In this document: piece after piece, positions 468-5,269 of the stretch
Layout: each line of letters starts with the position of its first letter
Numbering within the stretch: the stretch's first letter is position 1
From: an uncultured Phycisphaerales bacterium
GTDB lineage: Bacteria > Planctomycetota > Phycisphaerae > Tepidisphaerales > Tepidisphaeraceae
NCBI GenBank assembly: GCA_963758525.1
Contig: CAVWVQ010000003.1
Span: 4,128,001-4,192,000 of the forward strand
Reading direction: 5' to 3'
Length of the DNA: 64,000 bases
Notes under the pieces: generated by a model
The model's database searches: none
What the model saw: the letters and a program-made list of their open reading frames with translations, nothing else
Told to the model about the DNA's origin: nothing
Program-made: the position numbers and the translations under genes

Positions 468-2630
468 ATGAGAAAGCGATCGCGACCGGGTAACGCATTC
501 ATCTCTGAAGGGGCTTCTTGTCAACGGCGAGACGGCTTGATTGCTAAGTTCCGTTCATTGCTCTCTCCGATCAGCTTCGCGCACTCCCCCTGCGCCCTTG
601 GCGGGGAGGCTAACGAGGCGGGGGTTTGGGGGCAGAGCCCCCAAGTCTTTGTCGTTCTCGGCGGAACCGTGGCTGCCATCCGGCACCGCGCGGGCGGCGC
701 GATGCGGCGGTTGAATTCATCTCTACGCGGTCATCGGACGGACGGGTCGCAATGCCAGGCCGTGTGTTCCGAGCCGAATAAAACCTTGTTCGCGTCAACC
801 GGGCCGAATTCACACTGTCGCAGTCACCAGCAGAACCCGAATCCGACGCCAGTGGCGTCCGATTCGAACCAATGCCTGCCGGGCCGAATGAAGCCGAGTC
901 GCGGTCTCCAGATTGACGAGACATCGTCTTGCATGGCTGCAAGAACTATTGATGTCATAAGCGTTCCGCCGAACCGCTGGTCATGCCAGGATCATCTCCT
1001 CTTCTTGTTTGACAGGTTGTTGCTTAGCAGATTGTTGCTTGAGCCGGGCCTTGTTGGCCGCCCGCTCGTGTCCGGTGGGCTCCTGGCCCTGGTAGGCCGT
1101 CCCGTCGCGGACCATGGCAAAGAGGACACGCAGCAGGCGTCTTCCCATCGCGACGTTCGCCTTGGGCTTGACCATGTGTCCGATCAGCCGCTGGCGGATC
1201 GCCTCCTGCTTCGCGTCGGAGCGGCAGAGGGTGACCGCGGCCTTGCACAACGCCCAGCGCAGCGTGGCGCTGCCCGCCTTGGTGATGTGACCCGACTGGG
1301 TCCGACCGGCCGACTCCTGGTTGTCGGGAGTCAATCCCGCCCAGAACTCGAGGGTGTCGGCGTTGGGAAAACGGGAGAACTCGCCGATCTCCGCGGCGAT
1401 GATGCACGCCCAGATCTCGTCGATTCCCGGCACGCTCTTGAGAATCGCAATCAGGGAGGCGAATCGCCGGTCGCGGTTGGCAAAAATGATTTTCCTGCGC
1501 AGGCAGTCCCGCTGTCGCTCGATCAGGCAGACCAGGTCCAGGAAGTTGCCGAAGGCTTCGCGCTGCACGTCCTTGAGCAGATCGCCATTGGCCAGCAGCC
1601 ATTTCTGGGCGCCGACGCCGTCCAGCTTGGGACCGCCAATGTTGGCGGCCAGGAGCATCGACCGCATGGCGTGCTTGGCGCGGGTGAGGGTGCGGGACAA
1701 ATGCCGCCAGTGCCGGCCGAGCTTGCGGAGCTGCATCACTGCTTCGGGGGCGATCCATCCCAGCGGGCACTCCCCGCGGGAGAGGCGCTGGGCGATGTCG
1801 GCCGCGTCCTTGCGATCGGTCTTGCGCCGCTTACCCCGGAGGTTGGACAACTGCGTCGCGTCGGCGATCTCGATCTTGTCCACGCAGGAGCGGAAGCGGT
1901 CGATGAACCACTCGACAAAGCCGACGGCTTCCACTGCCAGGCGGCTGGGACGCGGCAACGCCAGCATCCATTTTTCGATGCGGTCAACGCACTTGGTGTC
2001 ACAGGTCAGCGCGGCGATCTGCGTCCCCGAAGCATCGACAGCACACAGCGAGACGGTACACTTATGCAAATCCACGCCGACGAACGCGGCGTACGAAACA
2101 GGCACATCAGACATAACAAACTCCGTGTTAGGGACCAAGGGAACTTAGAACACTCCCGGAAGCGTAACGGCTTCCGCAGGCCCCTTCACGGTTTTACACT
2201 GATCGAACTGGTGTTGATGCTCACCATCATCAGCGTTCTAGCCGCCATCGCCGGACCTCGTTACGCGAACTCGCTTGCACTCTATCGGGCCCAGGCAGGC
2301 GCCCAGCGAATCGCTGTTGATCTGGGCCTGGCGCGCTCACAGGCACGCATATCAAGCGCGGGGCAGAGCGTGGTGTTTAATTTGAACTCGAACAGCTACA
2401 GCCTTCCCGGGATGGCGGGCCTTTCAGGTCAGACGTCTCCTTATAACGTCAAGCTGTCCAGCGCCCCTTATATCGCGACCCTGGTCACGGCGTCTTTTGG
2501 ATCAGGATCGTCCGTCTCCTTCGATCAATACGGGCAGCCATCCGCGGGAGGAACCGTTAAAGTTCAATCCGGGGCCTTCGCGAAAACCGTCATTCTTGAT
2601 CCCAACACCGGTCTGGCAACCGTCCAATGA
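468..2630 (+). CDS. GspH/FimT-like pseudopilin carrying an in-frame IS110 insertion in its prepilin leader (155 aa without the IS)
   Basis: ATG at 468 after AGGA. Removing 502-2196 gives MRKRSRPGNA-FTLIELVLMLTIISVLAAIA, a class III signal peptide. The frame stays open through the IS. Confidence 0.85.
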   Translation: MRKRSRPGNAFISEGASCQRRDGLIAKFRSLLSPISFAHSPCALGGEANEAGVWGQSPQVFVVLGGTVAAIRHRAGGAMRRLNSSLRGHRTDGSQCQAVCSEPNKTLFASTGPNSHCRSHQQNPNPTPVASDSNQCLPGRMKPSRGLQIDETSSCMAARTIDVISVPPNRWSCQDHLLFLFDRLLLSRLLLEPGLVGRPLVSGGLLALVGRPVADHGKEDTQQASSHRDVRLGLDHVSDQPLADRLLLRVGAAEGDRGLAQRPAQRGAARLGDVTRLGPTGRLLVVGSQSRPELEGVGVGKTGELADLRGDDARPDLVDSRHALENRNQGGESPVAVGKNDFPAQAVPLSLDQADQVQEVAEGFALHVLEQIAIGQQPFLGADAVQLGTANVGGQEHRPHGVLGAGEGAGQMPPVPAELAELHHCFGGDPSQRALPAGEALGDVGRVLAIGLAPLTPEVGQLRRVGDLDLVHAGAEAVDEPLDKADGFHCQAAGTRQRQHPFFDAVNALGVTGQRGDLRPRSIDSTQRDGTLMQIHADERGVRNRHIRHNKLRVRDQGNLEHSRKRNGFRRPLHGFTLIELVLMLTIISVLAAIAGPRYANSLALYRAQAGAQRIAVDLGLARSQARISSAGQSVVFNLNSNSYSLPGMAGLSGQTSPYNVKLSSAPYIATLVTASFGSGSSVSFDQYGQPSAGGTVKVQSGAFAKTVILDPNTGLATVQ
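519..524 (-). promoter_or_regulatory. -35 box (TTGACA) of a predicted circle-junction promoter of IS copy 1 (copy 2: 2693-2698)
   Basis: Minus-strand TTGACA plus 17 nt reaches the element end; joining the ends gives TTGACA-N17-TAAAAC facing tnp. Confidence 0.65.
640..860 (-). ncRNA. Putative bridge/seek RNA of IS copy 1 (limits approximate)
   Basis: Segments at 809-817 and 751-755 match the target halves; 716-724 and 665-671 match the donor-junction halves; order is target loop then donor loop. Confidence 0.7.
981..2114 (-). CDS. IS110 family DEDD transposase/recombinase
   Basis: VGVDLHK, AVEA and KTDRKDA (DEDD); SVPGI; AGLTP..QESAG catalytic-Ser region; TKAG..LRWAL; ATG at 2114 with GGAG RBS. 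Confidence 0.95.
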   Translation of the reverse strand: MSDVPVSYAAFVGVDLHKCTVSLCAVDASGTQIAALTCDTKCVDRIEKWMLALPRPSRLAVEAVGFVEWFIDRFRSCVDKIEIADATQLSNLRGKRRKTDRKDAADIAQRLSRGECPLGWIAPEAVMQLRKLGRHWRHLSRTLTRAKHAMRSMLLAANIGGPKLDGVGAQKWLLANGDLLKDVQREAFGNFLDLVCLIERQRDCLRRKIIFANRDRRFASLIAILKSVPGIDEIWACIIAAEIGEFSRFPNADTLEFWAGLTPDNQESAGRTQSGHITKAGSATLRWALCKAAVTLCRSDAKQEAIRQRLIGHMVKPKANVAMGRRLLRVLFAMVRDGTAYQGQEPTGHERAANKARLKQQSAKQQPVKQEEEMILA

Positions 2631-5269
2631 GCCGCAAAAACAGACTGCCAACGAGACTTCGCCGAAGTGCTTTCATCTCTGAAGGGGCTTCTTGTCAACG
2701 GCGAGACGGCTTGATTGCTAAGTTCCGTTCATTGCTCTCTCCGATCAGCTTCGCGCACTCCCCCTGCGCCCTTGGCGGGGAGGCTAACGAGGCGGGGGTT
2801 TGGGGGCAGAGCCCCCAAGTCTTTGTCGTTCTCGGCGGAACCGTGGCTGCCATCCGGCACCGCGCGGGCGGCGCGATGCGGCGGTTGAATTCATCTCTAT
2901 GCGGTCATCGGACGGACGGGTCGCAATGCCAGGCCGTGTGTTCCGAGCCGAATAAAACCTTGTTCGCGTCAACCGGGCCGAATTCACACTGTCGCAGTCA
3001 CCAGCAGAACCCGAATCCGACGCCAGTGGCGTCCGATTCGAACCAATGCCTGCCGGGCCGAATGAAGCCGAGTCGCGGTCTCCAGATTGACGAGACATCG
3101 TCTTGCATGGCTGCAAGAACTATTGATGTCATAAGCGTTCCGCCGAACCGCTGGTCATGCCAGGATCATCTCCTCTTCTTGTTTGACAGGTTGTTGCTTA
3201 GCAGATTGTTGCTTGAGCCGGGCCTTGTTGGCCGCCCGCTCGTGTCCGGTGGGCTCCTGGCCCTGGTAGGCCGTCCCGTCGCGGACCATGGCAAAGAGGA
3301 CACGCAGCAGGCGTCTTCCCATCGCGACGTTCGCCTTGGGCTTGACCATGTGTCCGATCAGCCGCTGGCGGATCGCCTCCTGCTTCGCGTCGGAGCGGCA
3401 GAGGGTGACCGCGGCCTTGCACAACGCCCAGCGCAGCGTGGCGCTGCCCGCCTTGGTGATGTGACCCGACTGGGTCCGGCCGGCCGACTCCTGGTTGTCG
3501 GGAGTCAATCCCGCCCAGAACTCGAGGGTGTCGGCGTTGGGAAAACGGGAGAACTCGCCGATCTCCGCGGCGATGATGCACGCCCAGATCTCGTCGATTC
3601 CCGGCACGCTCTTGAGAATCGCAATCAGGGAGGCGAATCGCCGGTCGCGGTTGGCAAAAATGATTTTCCTGCGCAGGCATTCCCGCTGTCGCTCGATCAG
3701 GCAGACCAGGTCCAGGAAGTTGCCGAAGGCTTCGCGCTGCACGTCCTTGAGCAGATCGCCATTGGCCAGCAGCCATTTCTGGGCGCCGGCGCCGTCCAGC
3801 TTGGGACCGCGAATGTTGGCGGCCAGGAGCATCGACCGCATGGCGTGCTTGGCGCGGGTGAGGGTGCGGGACAAATGCCGCCAGTGCCGGCCGAGCTTGC
3901 GGAGCTGCATCACTGCTTCGGGGGCGATCCATCCCAGCGGGCACTCCCCGCGGGAGAGGCGCTGGGCGATGTCGGCCGCGTCCTTGCGATCGGTCTTGCG
4001 CCGCTTACCCCGGAGGTTGGACAACTGCGTCGCGTCGGCGATCTCGATCTTGTCCACGCAGGAGCGGAAGCGGTCGATGAACCACTCGACAAAGCCGACG
4101 GCTTCCACTGCCAGGCGGCTGGGACGCGGCAACGCCAGCATCCATTTTTCGATGCGGTCAACGCACTTGGTGTCACAGGTCAGCGCGGCGATCTGCGTCC
4201 CCGAAGCATCGACAGCACACAGCGAGACGGTACACTTATGCAAATCCACGCCGACGAACGCGGCGTACGAAACAGGCACATCAGACATAACAAACTCCGT
4301 GTTAGGGACCAAGGGAACTTAGAACACTCCCGGAAGCGTAACGGCTTCCGCAGGCCCCTTCACGGTTTTACACTGATCGAGATGGTCACCAGCATGATCA
4401 TTTTGTCGGTTCTGCTGCTGGCGTGCGGTTCGATTGTCATGATGGCGACGCGGGCCACGACCGATGGGTCGGTTCGTAATGTGGCTCAGCTTCAGGCGGC
4501 GGACGCAGCCAGTCAGATGACCGATGATCTGAATGTCGCGATCAACTTCACGCAACGTACCTCCACCGCAACGACGTTTACCGTCCCCGATCGGTTAAAT
4601 GCAGGAACTCCCCAGATTGTCTCCTATAGCTGGTCGGGCACGTCGGGAACCCCGCTTCTGCGCCAGTTCAACGGTGGACCAGCCACGGCCATCCTTTCGA
4701 CCGTCCAAAGCCTCAACCTCGCATACACACCCAGATTGATGGGACCCGCGCCAGGTCCTGTGGAGCAGGTGCTTTTCTCACATGACGCCGCGGTCGGCGT
4801 ATTCAAAGACTACAAAATGGACGACCAGAACTGGGGATCGCAGTATTTTGTTCCGACATTGCCATTTGGCACCAGTTCGTACACGCTGACACGAGTTCGC
4901 CTGATGCTCAAGGGCGCACCGCAGAACGCCGTCATGAACGTCAGCCTGGTGGCTCCAGACGCTTTTGATCGGCCGACGGGCACCACGATTGCGCAGACTA
5001 CCGTTTACGGGTCGGCTCTCAGCAGCCAATATGAATGGATCGATATTCCGTTCGCCGGATTGACGAACCAGAACCCATTGCAAGCGCTTTGTATTGTTCT
5101 GACTCCCGCCAATGGCGGGAAGGACATTGGCAACATTCAAATTGACCAATCGCTGCTGAACATTCTTTCCAATGCCTATTGGTCGACGACGTCAAATGCA
5201 GGCTCCTCCTGGTCGGCGGGCGTCTCGACCACGGTTGCCCGCTTTTACGTCTTCGGAACGATTCCCTGA
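2627..5269 (+). CDS. PilW/GspJ-like pseudopilin carrying an in-frame IS110 insertion in its prepilin leader (315 aa without the IS)
   Basis: ATGA overlap with upstream gene; removing 2676-4370 gives MSRKNRLPTRLRRSA-FTLIEMVTSMIILSVLLL. Confidence 0.85.
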   Translation: MSRKNRLPTRLRRSAFISEGASCQRRDGLIAKFRSLLSPISFAHSPCALGGEANEAGVWGQSPQVFVVLGGTVAAIRHRAGGAMRRLNSSLCGHRTDGSQCQAVCSEPNKTLFASTGPNSHCRSHQQNPNPTPVASDSNQCLPGRMKPSRGLQIDETSSCMAARTIDVISVPPNRWSCQDHLLFLFDRLLLSRLLLEPGLVGRPLVSGGLLALVGRPVADHGKEDTQQASSHRDVRLGLDHVSDQPLADRLLLRVGAAEGDRGLAQRPAQRGAARLGDVTRLGPAGRLLVVGSQSRPELEGVGVGKTGELADLRGDDARPDLVDSRHALENRNQGGESPVAVGKNDFPAQAFPLSLDQADQVQEVAEGFALHVLEQIAIGQQPFLGAGAVQLGTANVGGQEHRPHGVLGAGEGAGQMPPVPAELAELHHCFGGDPSQRALPAGEALGDVGRVLAIGLAPLTPEVGQLRRVGDLDLVHAGAEAVDEPLDKADGFHCQAAGTRQRQHPFFDAVNALGVTGQRGDLRPRSIDSTQRDGTLMQIHADERGVRNRHIRHNKLRVRDQGNLEHSRKRNGFRRPLHGFTLIEMVTSMIILSVLLLACGSIVMMATRATTDGSVRNVAQLQAADAASQMTDDLNVAINFTQRTSTATTFTVPDRLNAGTPQIVSYSWSGTSGTPLLRQFNGGPATAILSTVQSLNLAYTPRLMGPAPGPVEQVLFSHDAAVGVFKDYKMDDQNWGSQYFVPTLPFGTSSYTLTRVRLMLKGAPQNAVMNVSLVAPDAFDRPTGTTIAQTTVYGSALSSQYEWIDIPFAGLTNQNPLQALCIVLTPANGGKDIGNIQIDQSLLNILSNAYWSTTSNAGSSWSAGVSTTVARFYVFGTIP
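2814..3034 (-). ncRNA. Putative bridge/seek RNA of IS copy 2 (limits approximate)
   Basis: Same four guide-like segments as copy 1, offset +2174. Confidence 0.7.
3155..4288 (-). CDS. IS110 family DEDD transposase/recombinase
   Basis: Same motifs as copy 1; three amino-acid differences (G/R, V/A, D/E). Confidence 0.95.
   Translation of the reverse strand: MSDVPVSYAAFVGVDLHKCTVSLCAVDASGTQIAALTCDTKCVDRIEKWMLALPRPSRLAVEAVGFVEWFIDRFRSCVDKIEIADATQLSNLRGKRRKTDRKDAADIAQRLSRGECPLGWIAPEAVMQLRKLGRHWRHLSRTLTRAKHAMRSMLLAANIRGPKLDGAGAQKWLLANGDLLKDVQREAFGNFLDLVCLIERQRECLRRKIIFANRDRRFASLIAILKSVPGIDEIWACIIAAEIGEFSRFPNADTLEFWAGLTPDNQESAGRTQSGHITKAGSATLRWALCKAAVTLCRSDAKQEAIRQRLIGHMVKPKANVAMGRRLLRVLFAMVRDGTAYQGQEPTGHERAANKARLKQQSAKQQPVKQEEEMILA

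Follow-up and report, generated by a model that had tools for sequence, protein, structure and literature searches.

We have analysed a stretch of 64,000 nucleotides (nt) from an uncultured Phycisphaerales bacterium (contig CAVWVQ010000003.1, positions 4,128,001 to 4,192,000; hereafter the window), at the start of which two 1695-nt copies of one insertion sequence (IS) are found in consecutive genes of a pilin-like gene cluster. The element belongs to the IS110 family, is IS1111-like, and is inserted where the Phe codon of the prepilin motif meets the Thr codon. Judging from its sequence and from those of its relatives, we consider it reasonably likely that the element is steered to this site by a bridge RNA (seekRNA), and that it is translated through as a leader which prepilin peptidase would remove. 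An original prediction for this DNA had described an RNA-guided recombinase programmed against the pilin N-methylation motif by four guide segments within positions 640-860. The sections below deal with the insertion site, the open pilin frame, the RNA and its guides, and the place of the element among known systems.

Insertion into the prepilin cleavage motif

The element and its parts are located as follows (positions are those of the window).

501-2195, minus strand: IS copy 1, 1695 nt or 565 codons, in a GspH-like minor pseudopilin gene, between TTC (Phe) and ACA (Thr)
2675-4369, minus strand: IS copy 2, in the next gene, a PilV-like minor pilin gene
981-2138 (copy 2: 3155-4312), minus strand: transposase gene, 385 amino acids (aa), with Pfam, NCBIfam and PDB sequence matches
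506-514 and 2180-2188, no strand: sub-terminal inverted repeat TGAAGGGGC and its partner GCCCCTTCA, 9 bp, read from the sequence
519-524, minus strand: TTGACA in the end of the non-coding region, kept in homologues

The boundaries of the copies were obtained by comparing the four genomic copies and 71 related insertions, which leaves an ambiguity of 1 nt (a shared A). The four copies of the genome are 99-100% identical and are its only IS110-family genes. Copies 1 and 2 lie in an operon with further pilin-like genes downstream, and the transposase gene is oriented antisense to the interrupted pilin gene.

All four genomic copies sit between the Phe and Thr codons of the prepilin motif [GA]-F/T-L-[IV]-E, where a slash marks the junction here and below. 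The four occupied sites read:

GCATTC / IS / ACACTGATCGAA
GCTTTC / IS / ACACTGATCGAG
GGTTTC / IS / ACGTTGGTGGAG
GCTTTC / IS / ACGCTGGTGGAA

Relatives were collected as 27 loci from public genomes (55-85% protein identity, mostly Planctomycetota bins) and 80 loci from metagenomes (62-83%). At 21 of the 27 genome-contig loci the transposase-proximal end reads ...RPLHG/FTL[VI]E, and the remaining six have no motif match there. Full-length right flanks follow the pattern ACN-[YA]TN-RTN-GAR in 71 of 74 cases, the other three adjoining another IS end, and left flanks follow G[GC]N-TTY in 70 of 76. The claim that the target is the prepilin N-methylation or cleavage motif is thus borne out by four out of four genomic copies and by nearly all relatives.

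Insertion is specific for site and orientation and proceeds without target duplication, with a single shared base (A) at the junctions. The non-coding region (NCR) of the element lies 3' of the transposase gene, and the nucleotide that follows the NCR end differs from one insertion to another (G in 45 of 71, A in 26 of 71), so that this nucleotide, and the Phe codon on that side, belong to the target. The opposite element end starts with A in 97 of 97 cases, which puts the boundaries where the original prediction had them, save for one shared A. In the contig of one relative (L117, positions 622-771) the two ends are directly abutted, ...CAGAGAT/AAAACCGTG... The flanks of copies 1 and 2 yield the empty site proposed originally, GC(A/T)TTC/ACACTGATCGA, and the proposed circle junction, CACGGTTTT/ATCTCT, fits the variable base after the NCR end, the invariant A at the start and the abutted ends in L117. 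The contigs of four DNA runs showed neither a joint across an empty site nor a circle junction.

Some junctions deserve separate mention. The abutted ends in L117 (right end to left end, RE/LE) would be either a tandem insertion into a rebuilt site or a captured circle junction. At loci L105 and L121 the abutting neighbour is a different, related element with the end ...CCCTACATAGCT. A loose end at position 2197 in run X1, a plant-associated metagenome, belongs to a copy in which the flank after GGTTTTA is GATCGTCGAATTGCTGGTCGTGATCGG; this flank is one base short of the usual Thr-Leu-Val-Glu spacing, owing either to insertion out of register or to misassembly.

The empty site was sought at the DNA level in two genomes of the same genus, with no match, and a protein search returned only an uninterrupted homologue, 31% identical, with the leader ...RPRGRG/FTLVEM. 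The genome itself has 59 free prepilin-like sites. Among the 55 free sites with a Phe codon, this codon is TTT in 41, compared with ~35% TTT genome-wide in long open reading frames (ORFs; p=2e-9), an excess that could reflect evasion of guides specific for TTC or be a general feature of the motif. The Gly codon before Phe is GGT in 21 of 65 motif sites, compared with ~12% of Gly codons in long ORFs, an apparent over-use.

The prepilin motif is likewise occupied by a sister family, the transposase of which is 33% identical and the end of which reads ...CATGGTTTC. A sister-family query matched three genomes in a sample of 401 genomes of the phylum, and two members were found (L055 in genome G026 and L157 in genome G509).

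The assignment of the enzyme to the IS110 family, made in the original prediction, held: the transposase scored 47.7 bits with PF01548 (cut-off 29), 74.4 bits with PF02371 (cut-off 21.3), and 184.2 bits with NF033542, 'IS110 family RNA-guided transposase' (cut-off 140). In a PDB sequence search ISCro4 and IS621 were matched by the C-terminal domain alone (E 1e-12 to 9e-15). Residues D23, E70, D108, D111 and S276-A277 (in GLTPDNQESAG), candidates for the catalytic Asp/Glu residues and for the conserved Ser of G--P----S(G/A), are invariant in an alignment of 11 transposase sequences (A2).

The NCR measures 480 nt, and the other end of the element lies ~57 nt before the transposase start. Among relatives the NCR is 420-687 nt long, and the transposases of the clade have 377-395 aa. 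The clade consensus of the inverted repeat, GGCCCCTACA, is 10 bp long, and outside the repeats are terminal extensions of 7 nt at the transposase-proximal end and 5 nt (GAGAT) at the NCR end. On joining of the ends, the sequence TTGACA-17 nt-TAAAAC would arise, which resembles a sigma-70 promoter and is directed towards the transposase gene; a promoter function is suggested by analogy with ISEc11 as described in passages of PMC11187229. A hairpin between the inverted repeat and the transposase start (2157-2176; copy 2: 4331-4350), whose arms, inspected by eye, vary yet stay complementary in homologues, may be a 5'-untranslated-region structure or a binding site.

The open pilin frame and the rebuilt cleavage site

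The interrupted pilin frame stays open through the whole element, a feature that the original prediction did not mention and that can be seen in the window's own list of ORFs, with two long frames.

468-2630, plus strand: read-through frame 1, with the native start and leader MRKRSRPGNAF, 565 IS codons ending RPLHGF, and then TLIELV... (GspH-like)
2627-5269, plus strand: read-through frame 2 of 880 aa, with the pilin ATG, MSRKNRLPTRLRRSAF, 565 IS codons ending RPLHGF, and then TLIEMV... (PilV-like)

The same is seen throughout the relatives, where the length is divisible by three in 72 of 75 elements, the pilin frame is stop-free in 71 of 75, and the open frame comprises 530-633 IS codons. All 21 genome elements are multiples of three in length and 20 of them have no stop in the pilin frame, whereas the two remaining frames of that strand contain 7-16 and 17-26 stops. 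Both ends are present in 54 metagenomic elements, of which 51 have a length divisible by three and no stop, and the other three are frameshifted. There are 38 different element lengths, from 1584 to 1899, every one divisible by three.

Since the pilin frame is codon-aligned antisense to the transposase gene, the open frame entails that the transposase gene avoids TTA, CTA and TCA. These codons make up 1 of 6195 in the transposases of the clade versus 46 of 7094 in 19 other IS110-family genes of the same order, and none is present in the window transposase (host rate 0.85%, P for 0 in 387 codons ~0.04). The NCRs of 12 lineages, 420-687 nt long, are all divisible by three and stop-free, with a chance of 0.25-10% per lineage as estimated by dinucleotide shuffling. 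These figures make it quite probable that the frame is kept open for read-through translation.

A long antisense frame might also be a real gene of the element with a protein function of its own, for which its openness over 530-633 codons in 71 of 75 elements could speak. We regard this as highly improbable, since the frame has neither a start nor a stop of its own and runs to both ends, and since the NCR part varies widely in length. The 565-aa IS-encoded peptide has no Pfam or NCBIfam match, and its composition, with Gly, Leu, Ala and Arg together making up ~43%, is typical of antisense translation. An internal start near the rebuilt site was considered and rejected: in most loci the closest conserved ATG or GTG is 42-43 codons upstream and arises simply as the antisense of the DLHK His codon. 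Read-through of the whole frame would make an internal start superfluous.

With GGT TTT as its last codons, the element restores Gly(-1)-Phe(+1) ahead of T-L-[IV]-E. In the 880-aa frame the restored motif, at residues 579-599, scores above cut-off with both N_methyl PF07963 (26.1 bits) and TIGR02532 (22.1 bits), and two matches to the A24 prepilin-peptidase family are present in the genome. From the multiple-of-three length, the stop-free pilin frame and the Gly-Phe end, the IS is predicted to be read through as a giant leader removed by prepilin peptidase.

Ends of the element are also found in the leaders of intact genes. Two intact pilin-like genes of the genome (G000; C3:4773160 and C3:687725) have short leaders ending ...SRRPLHG/FTLVE, with DNA nearly matching the element end. 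One of these leaders reads MKTHHVLNRIKRSGF-NILREHKSSRRPLHGF-TLVE, that is, the old Gly-Phe followed by a 48-nt in-frame remnant. A pattern search with the end sequence gave hits in 6 of 141 genomes of the order. In-frame remnants of element ends form the leaders of intact pilin-like genes at loci L155, L145 and L146, and no IS110-family match was found in the genome of L146. Longer remnants that are open in frame occur at L148 (265 codons) and L151 (121 codons). L145, L146, L148 and L151 are all from the hits of this pattern search. The RPLHG leaders and the in-frame remnants look like decay products of the element left in leaders, and the intact genes with short leaders ending in RPLHG suggest that such leaders work. 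We put the chance that the pilin is rescued by cleavage at even or slightly better.

Three observations count against a translated and cleaved leader. The hydropathy of the IS-encoded peptide gives no clear signal and is in part unfavourable: in several lineages a stretch of 19 aa close to its beginning is hydrophobic (Kyte-Doolittle values up to 2.55) and could misroute the peptide. Sister-family member L157, inserted at the same motif, has four stops in the pilin frame; its counterpart L055 is nearly open over 588 codons, and two members are too small a sample to date the open-frame trait. Finally, most insertions look recent (copies 99-100% identical), so that they say little about the long-term survival of interrupted genes.

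It is also conceivable, if rather unlikely, that the element is RNA-guided and open in frame without any rescue of the pilin. The open frame would then spare the downstream operon genes Rho-type polarity or mRNA decay, or its antisense translation would damp the transposase. The position of copies 1 and 2 in consecutive operon genes with pilin-like genes downstream is in line with this, and the frame statistics suit any benefit from uninterrupted translation. However, the multiple-of-three length together with the rebuilt Gly-Phe is most simply explained if the downstream part is needed in frame and cleavable, and the intact genes with IS-derived RPLHG leaders point the same way.

We keep to a leader that is translated and cleaved as the preferred reading, and give an even chance to the further idea that an autonomous transposon has evolved to live in the disposable leader of pilins: it would be placed by its RNA guide at the only codon boundary that permits this, be stop-free over both transposase and guide, and bring its own Gly-Phe for the host peptidase.

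The candidate guide RNA and its match to the target

The 3' non-coding end of the element has a covariation-supported fold. The helices were read from an alignment of 16 distinct homologous NCRs (A1) and, together with the segments discussed below, are located as follows.

676-918 (copy 2: 2850-3092), minus strand, the strand being assumed from the family: structured NCR, predicted bridge RNA/seekRNA (A1)
918-908/802-793, minus strand: helix P1, enclosing the first module
886-876/833-821, minus strand: helix P2, stem homologous to P4 (CRGCCCGG / CCGG-U-G-A-CYG)
776-769/737-728 and 763-755/746-738, minus strand: helix P4, stem homologous to P2, with an apical extension
710-698/690-676, minus strand: helix P5, after P4
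889-895, minus strand: M0, putative 5' target guide GGCUUCA, same sense as the Gly/Ala codon, the Phe codon and the A of the target
809-817, minus strand: M1, putative 3' target guide CAGUGUGAA, complementary to TTC ACA CTG
778-785, minus strand: D1, putative 5' donor guide GGUUUUAU, same sense as the joined ends GGTTTT/AT; GGUUUUA(U)
716-724, minus strand: M2, putative 3' donor guide AGAGAUGAA, complementary to TT(C/T)/ATCTCT
751-755, minus strand: GCAUU, apical end of hairpin P4, unsupported as a guide
665-671, minus strand: CACGGUU, unconserved, unsupported as a guide

Within the helices of A1, 92.7% of the cells pair and both sides change in 30 of 49 pairs, which none of 500 shuffles reached; in a control with the partners slid by 1-3 columns, 24-41% of the cells paired. 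The fold contains two homologous stems, each with a 7-nt segment on its 5' side and a 9-nt segment on its 3' side, and UUC follows every segment. The interval 640-860 given in the original prediction cuts off the 5' third of this RNA, as the structured region extends from about 918 to 676. Single-sequence folding of 640-860 was uninformative (z = +1.28). A search of Rfam gave no family for this region of the window, and from four homologous loci it returned only a flanking tRNA.

Loci L008, L009, L013, L019, L022, L028 and L029 have an extra conserved module of ~250 nt (GGATTTTCGGAGGCATGG...CTATCCCTAGGCAGGTTGCGTCCCCGCAGAGCC...) between the structured RNA and the element end. The module is absent from the element in the window, lacks an Rfam match and likewise contains no stop in the pilin frame.

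M0 and M1 flank P2 and match the two strands of the target, and D1 and M2 flank P4 and match the two strands of the joined ends GGTTTT/ATCTCT. The strings quoted in the original prediction are found in their places on the plus strand (TTCACACTG at 809-817, AATGC at 751-755, TTCATCTCT at 716-724 and AACCGTG at 665-671), and both 9-mers are indeed followed by UUC on the minus strand. Its donor guide at 724-716 is borne out as to its position, being invariant and handle-flanked in the 16 aligned homologues and present as AGAGATGAA in 70 of 70 elements. D1 is equally invariant in A1, and its GGTTTTA occurs upstream of M2 in 68 of 70 elements, 61 nt away in 64 of them and at other spacings in four. 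The target guide at 817-809 is upheld as to its position, which is conserved and handle-flanked in the 16 homologues, where it reads NNNNGUGAA, matching the strand of Phe-Thr-Leu; its distal 6 nt, on the other hand, do not covary with the right half-site. M0 lies outside 640-860 and follows the pattern G[GC]NUUYA in homologues.

The other two proposed guides fared differently. GCAUU (755-751) overlaps the apical loop of P4 (A1 columns 183-187) and varies without tracking the targets; among its counterparts in homologues are GCACU, GCAUG, GCACA and GCGCG. By chance, any one 5-mer would turn up ~0.5-0.9 times per 480-nt NCR. CACGGUU (671-665) is variable in homologues (CCCGAUU, AAUGAUU, AUCCAUU and so on) although the donor end that it should bind is invariant. 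A model with the four guides 817-809, 755-751, 724-716 and 671-665 is hence scarcely credible, even if all four strings are present and match copy 1, and better conserved partners exist at 895-889 and 785-778.

M2 shows one further feature. It has G opposite the third base of the Phe codon in 70 of 70 elements, though the circle junction would carry T at this position. M2 therefore fits the integrated TTC/ATCTCT junction (45 of 71) better than the circle, which may bear on excision versus insertion.

Covariation between guides and targets was assessed for 56 insertion events, with the guides shuffled among the events (20000 shuffles). M0 matched its own left half-site at 276 of 336 positions versus 237.4 +/- 6.3 in the shuffled sets, and the Gly/Ala-codon part of M0 alone gave 120 of 168 matches versus 97.1 +/- 5.0; neither value was reached in any of the 20000 shuffles. 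The third base of the Phe codon covaries with M0 (0 of 20000) and with M1 (p=0.006), and within M1 only the UGAA/UAAA part covaries (p=0.006). Covariation across homologues, suggested as a check when the guides were first proposed, is thus present for M0 and for the TTY part of M1, and absent for the distal 6 nt of M1. The 56-event test replaces an earlier permutation at the level of 13 lineages (M0 p=0.035, M1 p=0.62). As one motif is common to all lineages, such a test has only a small range of variation to work with.

Occupied and free sites of the genome also differ. M1 matches the occupied sites at 9, 9, 7 and 8 of 9 positions and the 59 free sites at 8 at most (Mann-Whitney p=6e-4), and TTC is present in 4 of 4 occupied sites versus 14 of 59 free ones (Fisher p=0.005). 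Taken as comparative evidence, these findings speak for guidance by RNA in the left half and centre of the site, and do not extend to the right half. That the element is RNA-guided we consider very likely.

There are, on the other hand, several points against guidance by an RNA of the transposase strand. The distal 6 nt of M1 match the right half-site at 234 of 336 positions versus 233.1 in the shuffled sets (p=0.44), and in several lineages they spell CGG or TGG and not Leu codons. The pairing that is seen covers about G[GC]N-TTY-AC, which is too short to explain near-exclusive insertion in full prepilin motifs. The covariation between guide and target could partly come from shared host codon usage. 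As to the strand, the helix wobbles amount to 23 G-U versus 21 A-C, so that the transposase strand is not favoured, and the summed fold energies of the plus strand versus the transposase strand are -386.7 versus -350.0 for P4 and -354.5 versus -327.0 for P5. A look through public sequencing runs returned none of RNA for this sequence.

The shortness of the pairing, and the lack of covariation in the distal bases of M1, would suit a target choice made mainly by protein-DNA contacts, or by survivorship if insertions elsewhere are lost. The RNA-like matches would then arise because the donor ends mimic the target, and the donor junction GGTTTT/ATCTCT does resemble the target GGNTTY/ACNCTG. This explanation is nevertheless very unlikely in our view: M0 varies together with the Gly/Ala codon of its target site, at which the donor always has GGT; the family entry, matched above its cut-off, carries the annotation RNA-guided; and insertion occurs in one orientation and at one phosphodiester bond.

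The strand figures leave some room for a guide RNA made from the other strand, in the sense of the pilin gene and for example by read-through from the pilin promoter, in which the four segments would appear as reverse complements. The original prediction had remarked that some flanking stems have G-T pairs which fold better on the plus strand, and had asked for the transcribed strand to be confirmed. This doubt is borne out by the G-U and A-C counts (23 and 21), which do not discriminate. The energies of P4 and P5 are slightly better on the plus strand, the helices suit both strands equally, and the guides address both DNA strands either way. We still judge a pilin-sense RNA to be unlikely. 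Such an RNA would itself be under translation, and the orders 'top-strand match 5' of bottom-strand match' and 'target loop before donor loop' fit the transposase sense. The seekRNA of tested elements has the sense of the transposase. In passages of PMC11187229, moreover, the experimentally tested seekRNAs are described as deriving from the NCR downstream of the transposase gene.

For an RNA of transposase sense and a cleavable leader, the course of events would be as follows. The RNA would be made from the transposase strand, as assumed by analogy with characterised elements, and would load the recombinase. The element would excise as a circle, the junction of which, GGTTTT/ATCTCT, would also create a promoter. 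The 3' NCR would yield a two-loop RNA pairing with both strands of the target and of the junction, and exchange would take place just 3' of the Phe codon. Ribosomes starting at the pilin's own start codon would read through the 530-633 IS codons, and prepilin peptidase would cut after the IS-encoded Gly and free the unchanged mature pilin. Release of an unchanged pilin would mean that the insertion costs the host little.

Relation to known systems and significance

The comparisons below draw on passages of Siddiquee et al. 2024 (PMC11187229), which describe the IS1111-type elements ISEc11, ISPa11, ISKpn4 and ISPst6 with their seekRNAs, and of Durrant et al. 2024 (PMC11208160), which describe the bridge RNA of IS621 with unequal guides of 9 and 4 bases. 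The element shares with the IS1111-type elements, as presented in those passages of PMC11187229, a DEDD transposase, a long NCR downstream of the transposase gene, sub-terminal inverted repeats and the absence of a target duplication. Also shared are a 7-nt extension at the transposase-proximal end and joined ends with promoter-like boxes, as well as an RNA, predicted from sequence in our case, in which the top-strand match lies 5' of the bottom-strand match and the two overlap in the target.

The same passages reveal differences. The transposase has 385 aa as compared with 330-350, and the extension at the NCR end is 5 nt as compared with 3, the subgroup extensions being 7 (or 6) bp and 3 bp. 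The inverted repeats are 9-10 bp long as compared with 11-13 bp in PMC11187229, and are within the 7-17 bp given in PMC11208160. In contrast to the elements described in PMC11187229, the target here is a codon boundary in a protein-coding motif, and the whole element is in frame and stop-free. The element is thus an IS110-family member and IS1111-like, departing from the IS1111 subgroup in two metric features, the extension and the protein length.

With IS621 and ISCro4 (PMC11208160; PDB 8wt6 and 9t56) the element would have in common a single RNA in which a target loop and a donor loop each address the two DNA strands, and it has the sequence similarity of the C-terminal domain (E 1e-12 to 9e-15). 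The guides are unequal in both cases, 9 and 7 here versus 9 and 4 in IS621 (PMC11208160). Unlike in the descriptions of IS621 and ISCro4 in those sources, the RNA is located in the other end of the element, the loops are near-duplicates with shared handles, the shared overlap is TTYA (of which only the A is identical) as compared with a CT core, and the donor loop has no closing helix of its own. By its architecture and its partial covariation the candidate RNA is to be classed as bridge RNA/seekRNA-like.

The Piv invertase of Moraxella, a relative of the IS110/IS1111 transposases according to a passage of PMC11187229, inverts segments of type IV pilin genes. It resembles the present element as a DEDD recombinase acting inside type IV pilin genes. 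Piv differs in that it inverts a resident segment for antigenic variation, with no mobile element at the cleavage site.

Rickettsia palindromic elements are in-frame mobile repeats inside genes. Like them, the present element is mobile DNA that is in frame and stop-free within a coding region; unlike these short, non-autonomous repeats, it is a complete autonomous IS of 1.6-1.9 kb with its transposase gene on the opposite strand. Other elements use repeated conserved sequence, in the form of non-coding or structural DNA, as a multi-copy landing pad. In contrast to such landing pads, the target here owes its conservation to a protein motif; its wobble positions accordingly vary, and mismatches are tolerated by the guides.

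Full-text literature searches returned no report of an IS110-family element aimed at a prepilin motif, or of an autonomous IS kept stop-free in frame. Their scope also included passages of PMC9208149 and the searchable supplements of PMC11187229 and PMC11208160, each of which has one picture-only file that is unsearchable.

The IS110 and IS1111 elements are the source of programmable bridge recombinases for genome engineering, and for this reason their natural variants matter. The clade described here offers a compact, near-duplicated two-loop RNA with predicted guides of 7 nt and 9 nt that tolerate mismatches at wobble positions, and may be useful for questions of specificity. Where an RNA-guided element has a protein motif as its target, an entire family of paralogous genes, with 59 free sites in this genome, would serve as landing pads.

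If read-through of the element is true, it would constitute a new way for a transposon to be harmless to its host, a counterpart at the protein level of a self-splicing intron or an intein, with splicing carried out by the host peptidase. It would imply that prepilin leaders can bear more than 500 extra residues, which is relevant to the handling of class III signal peptides, and it would explain the oddly long 'prepilin-domain' ORFs found in genome annotations. The element would thereby potentially represent a new host-sparing principle within the known IS110 family.

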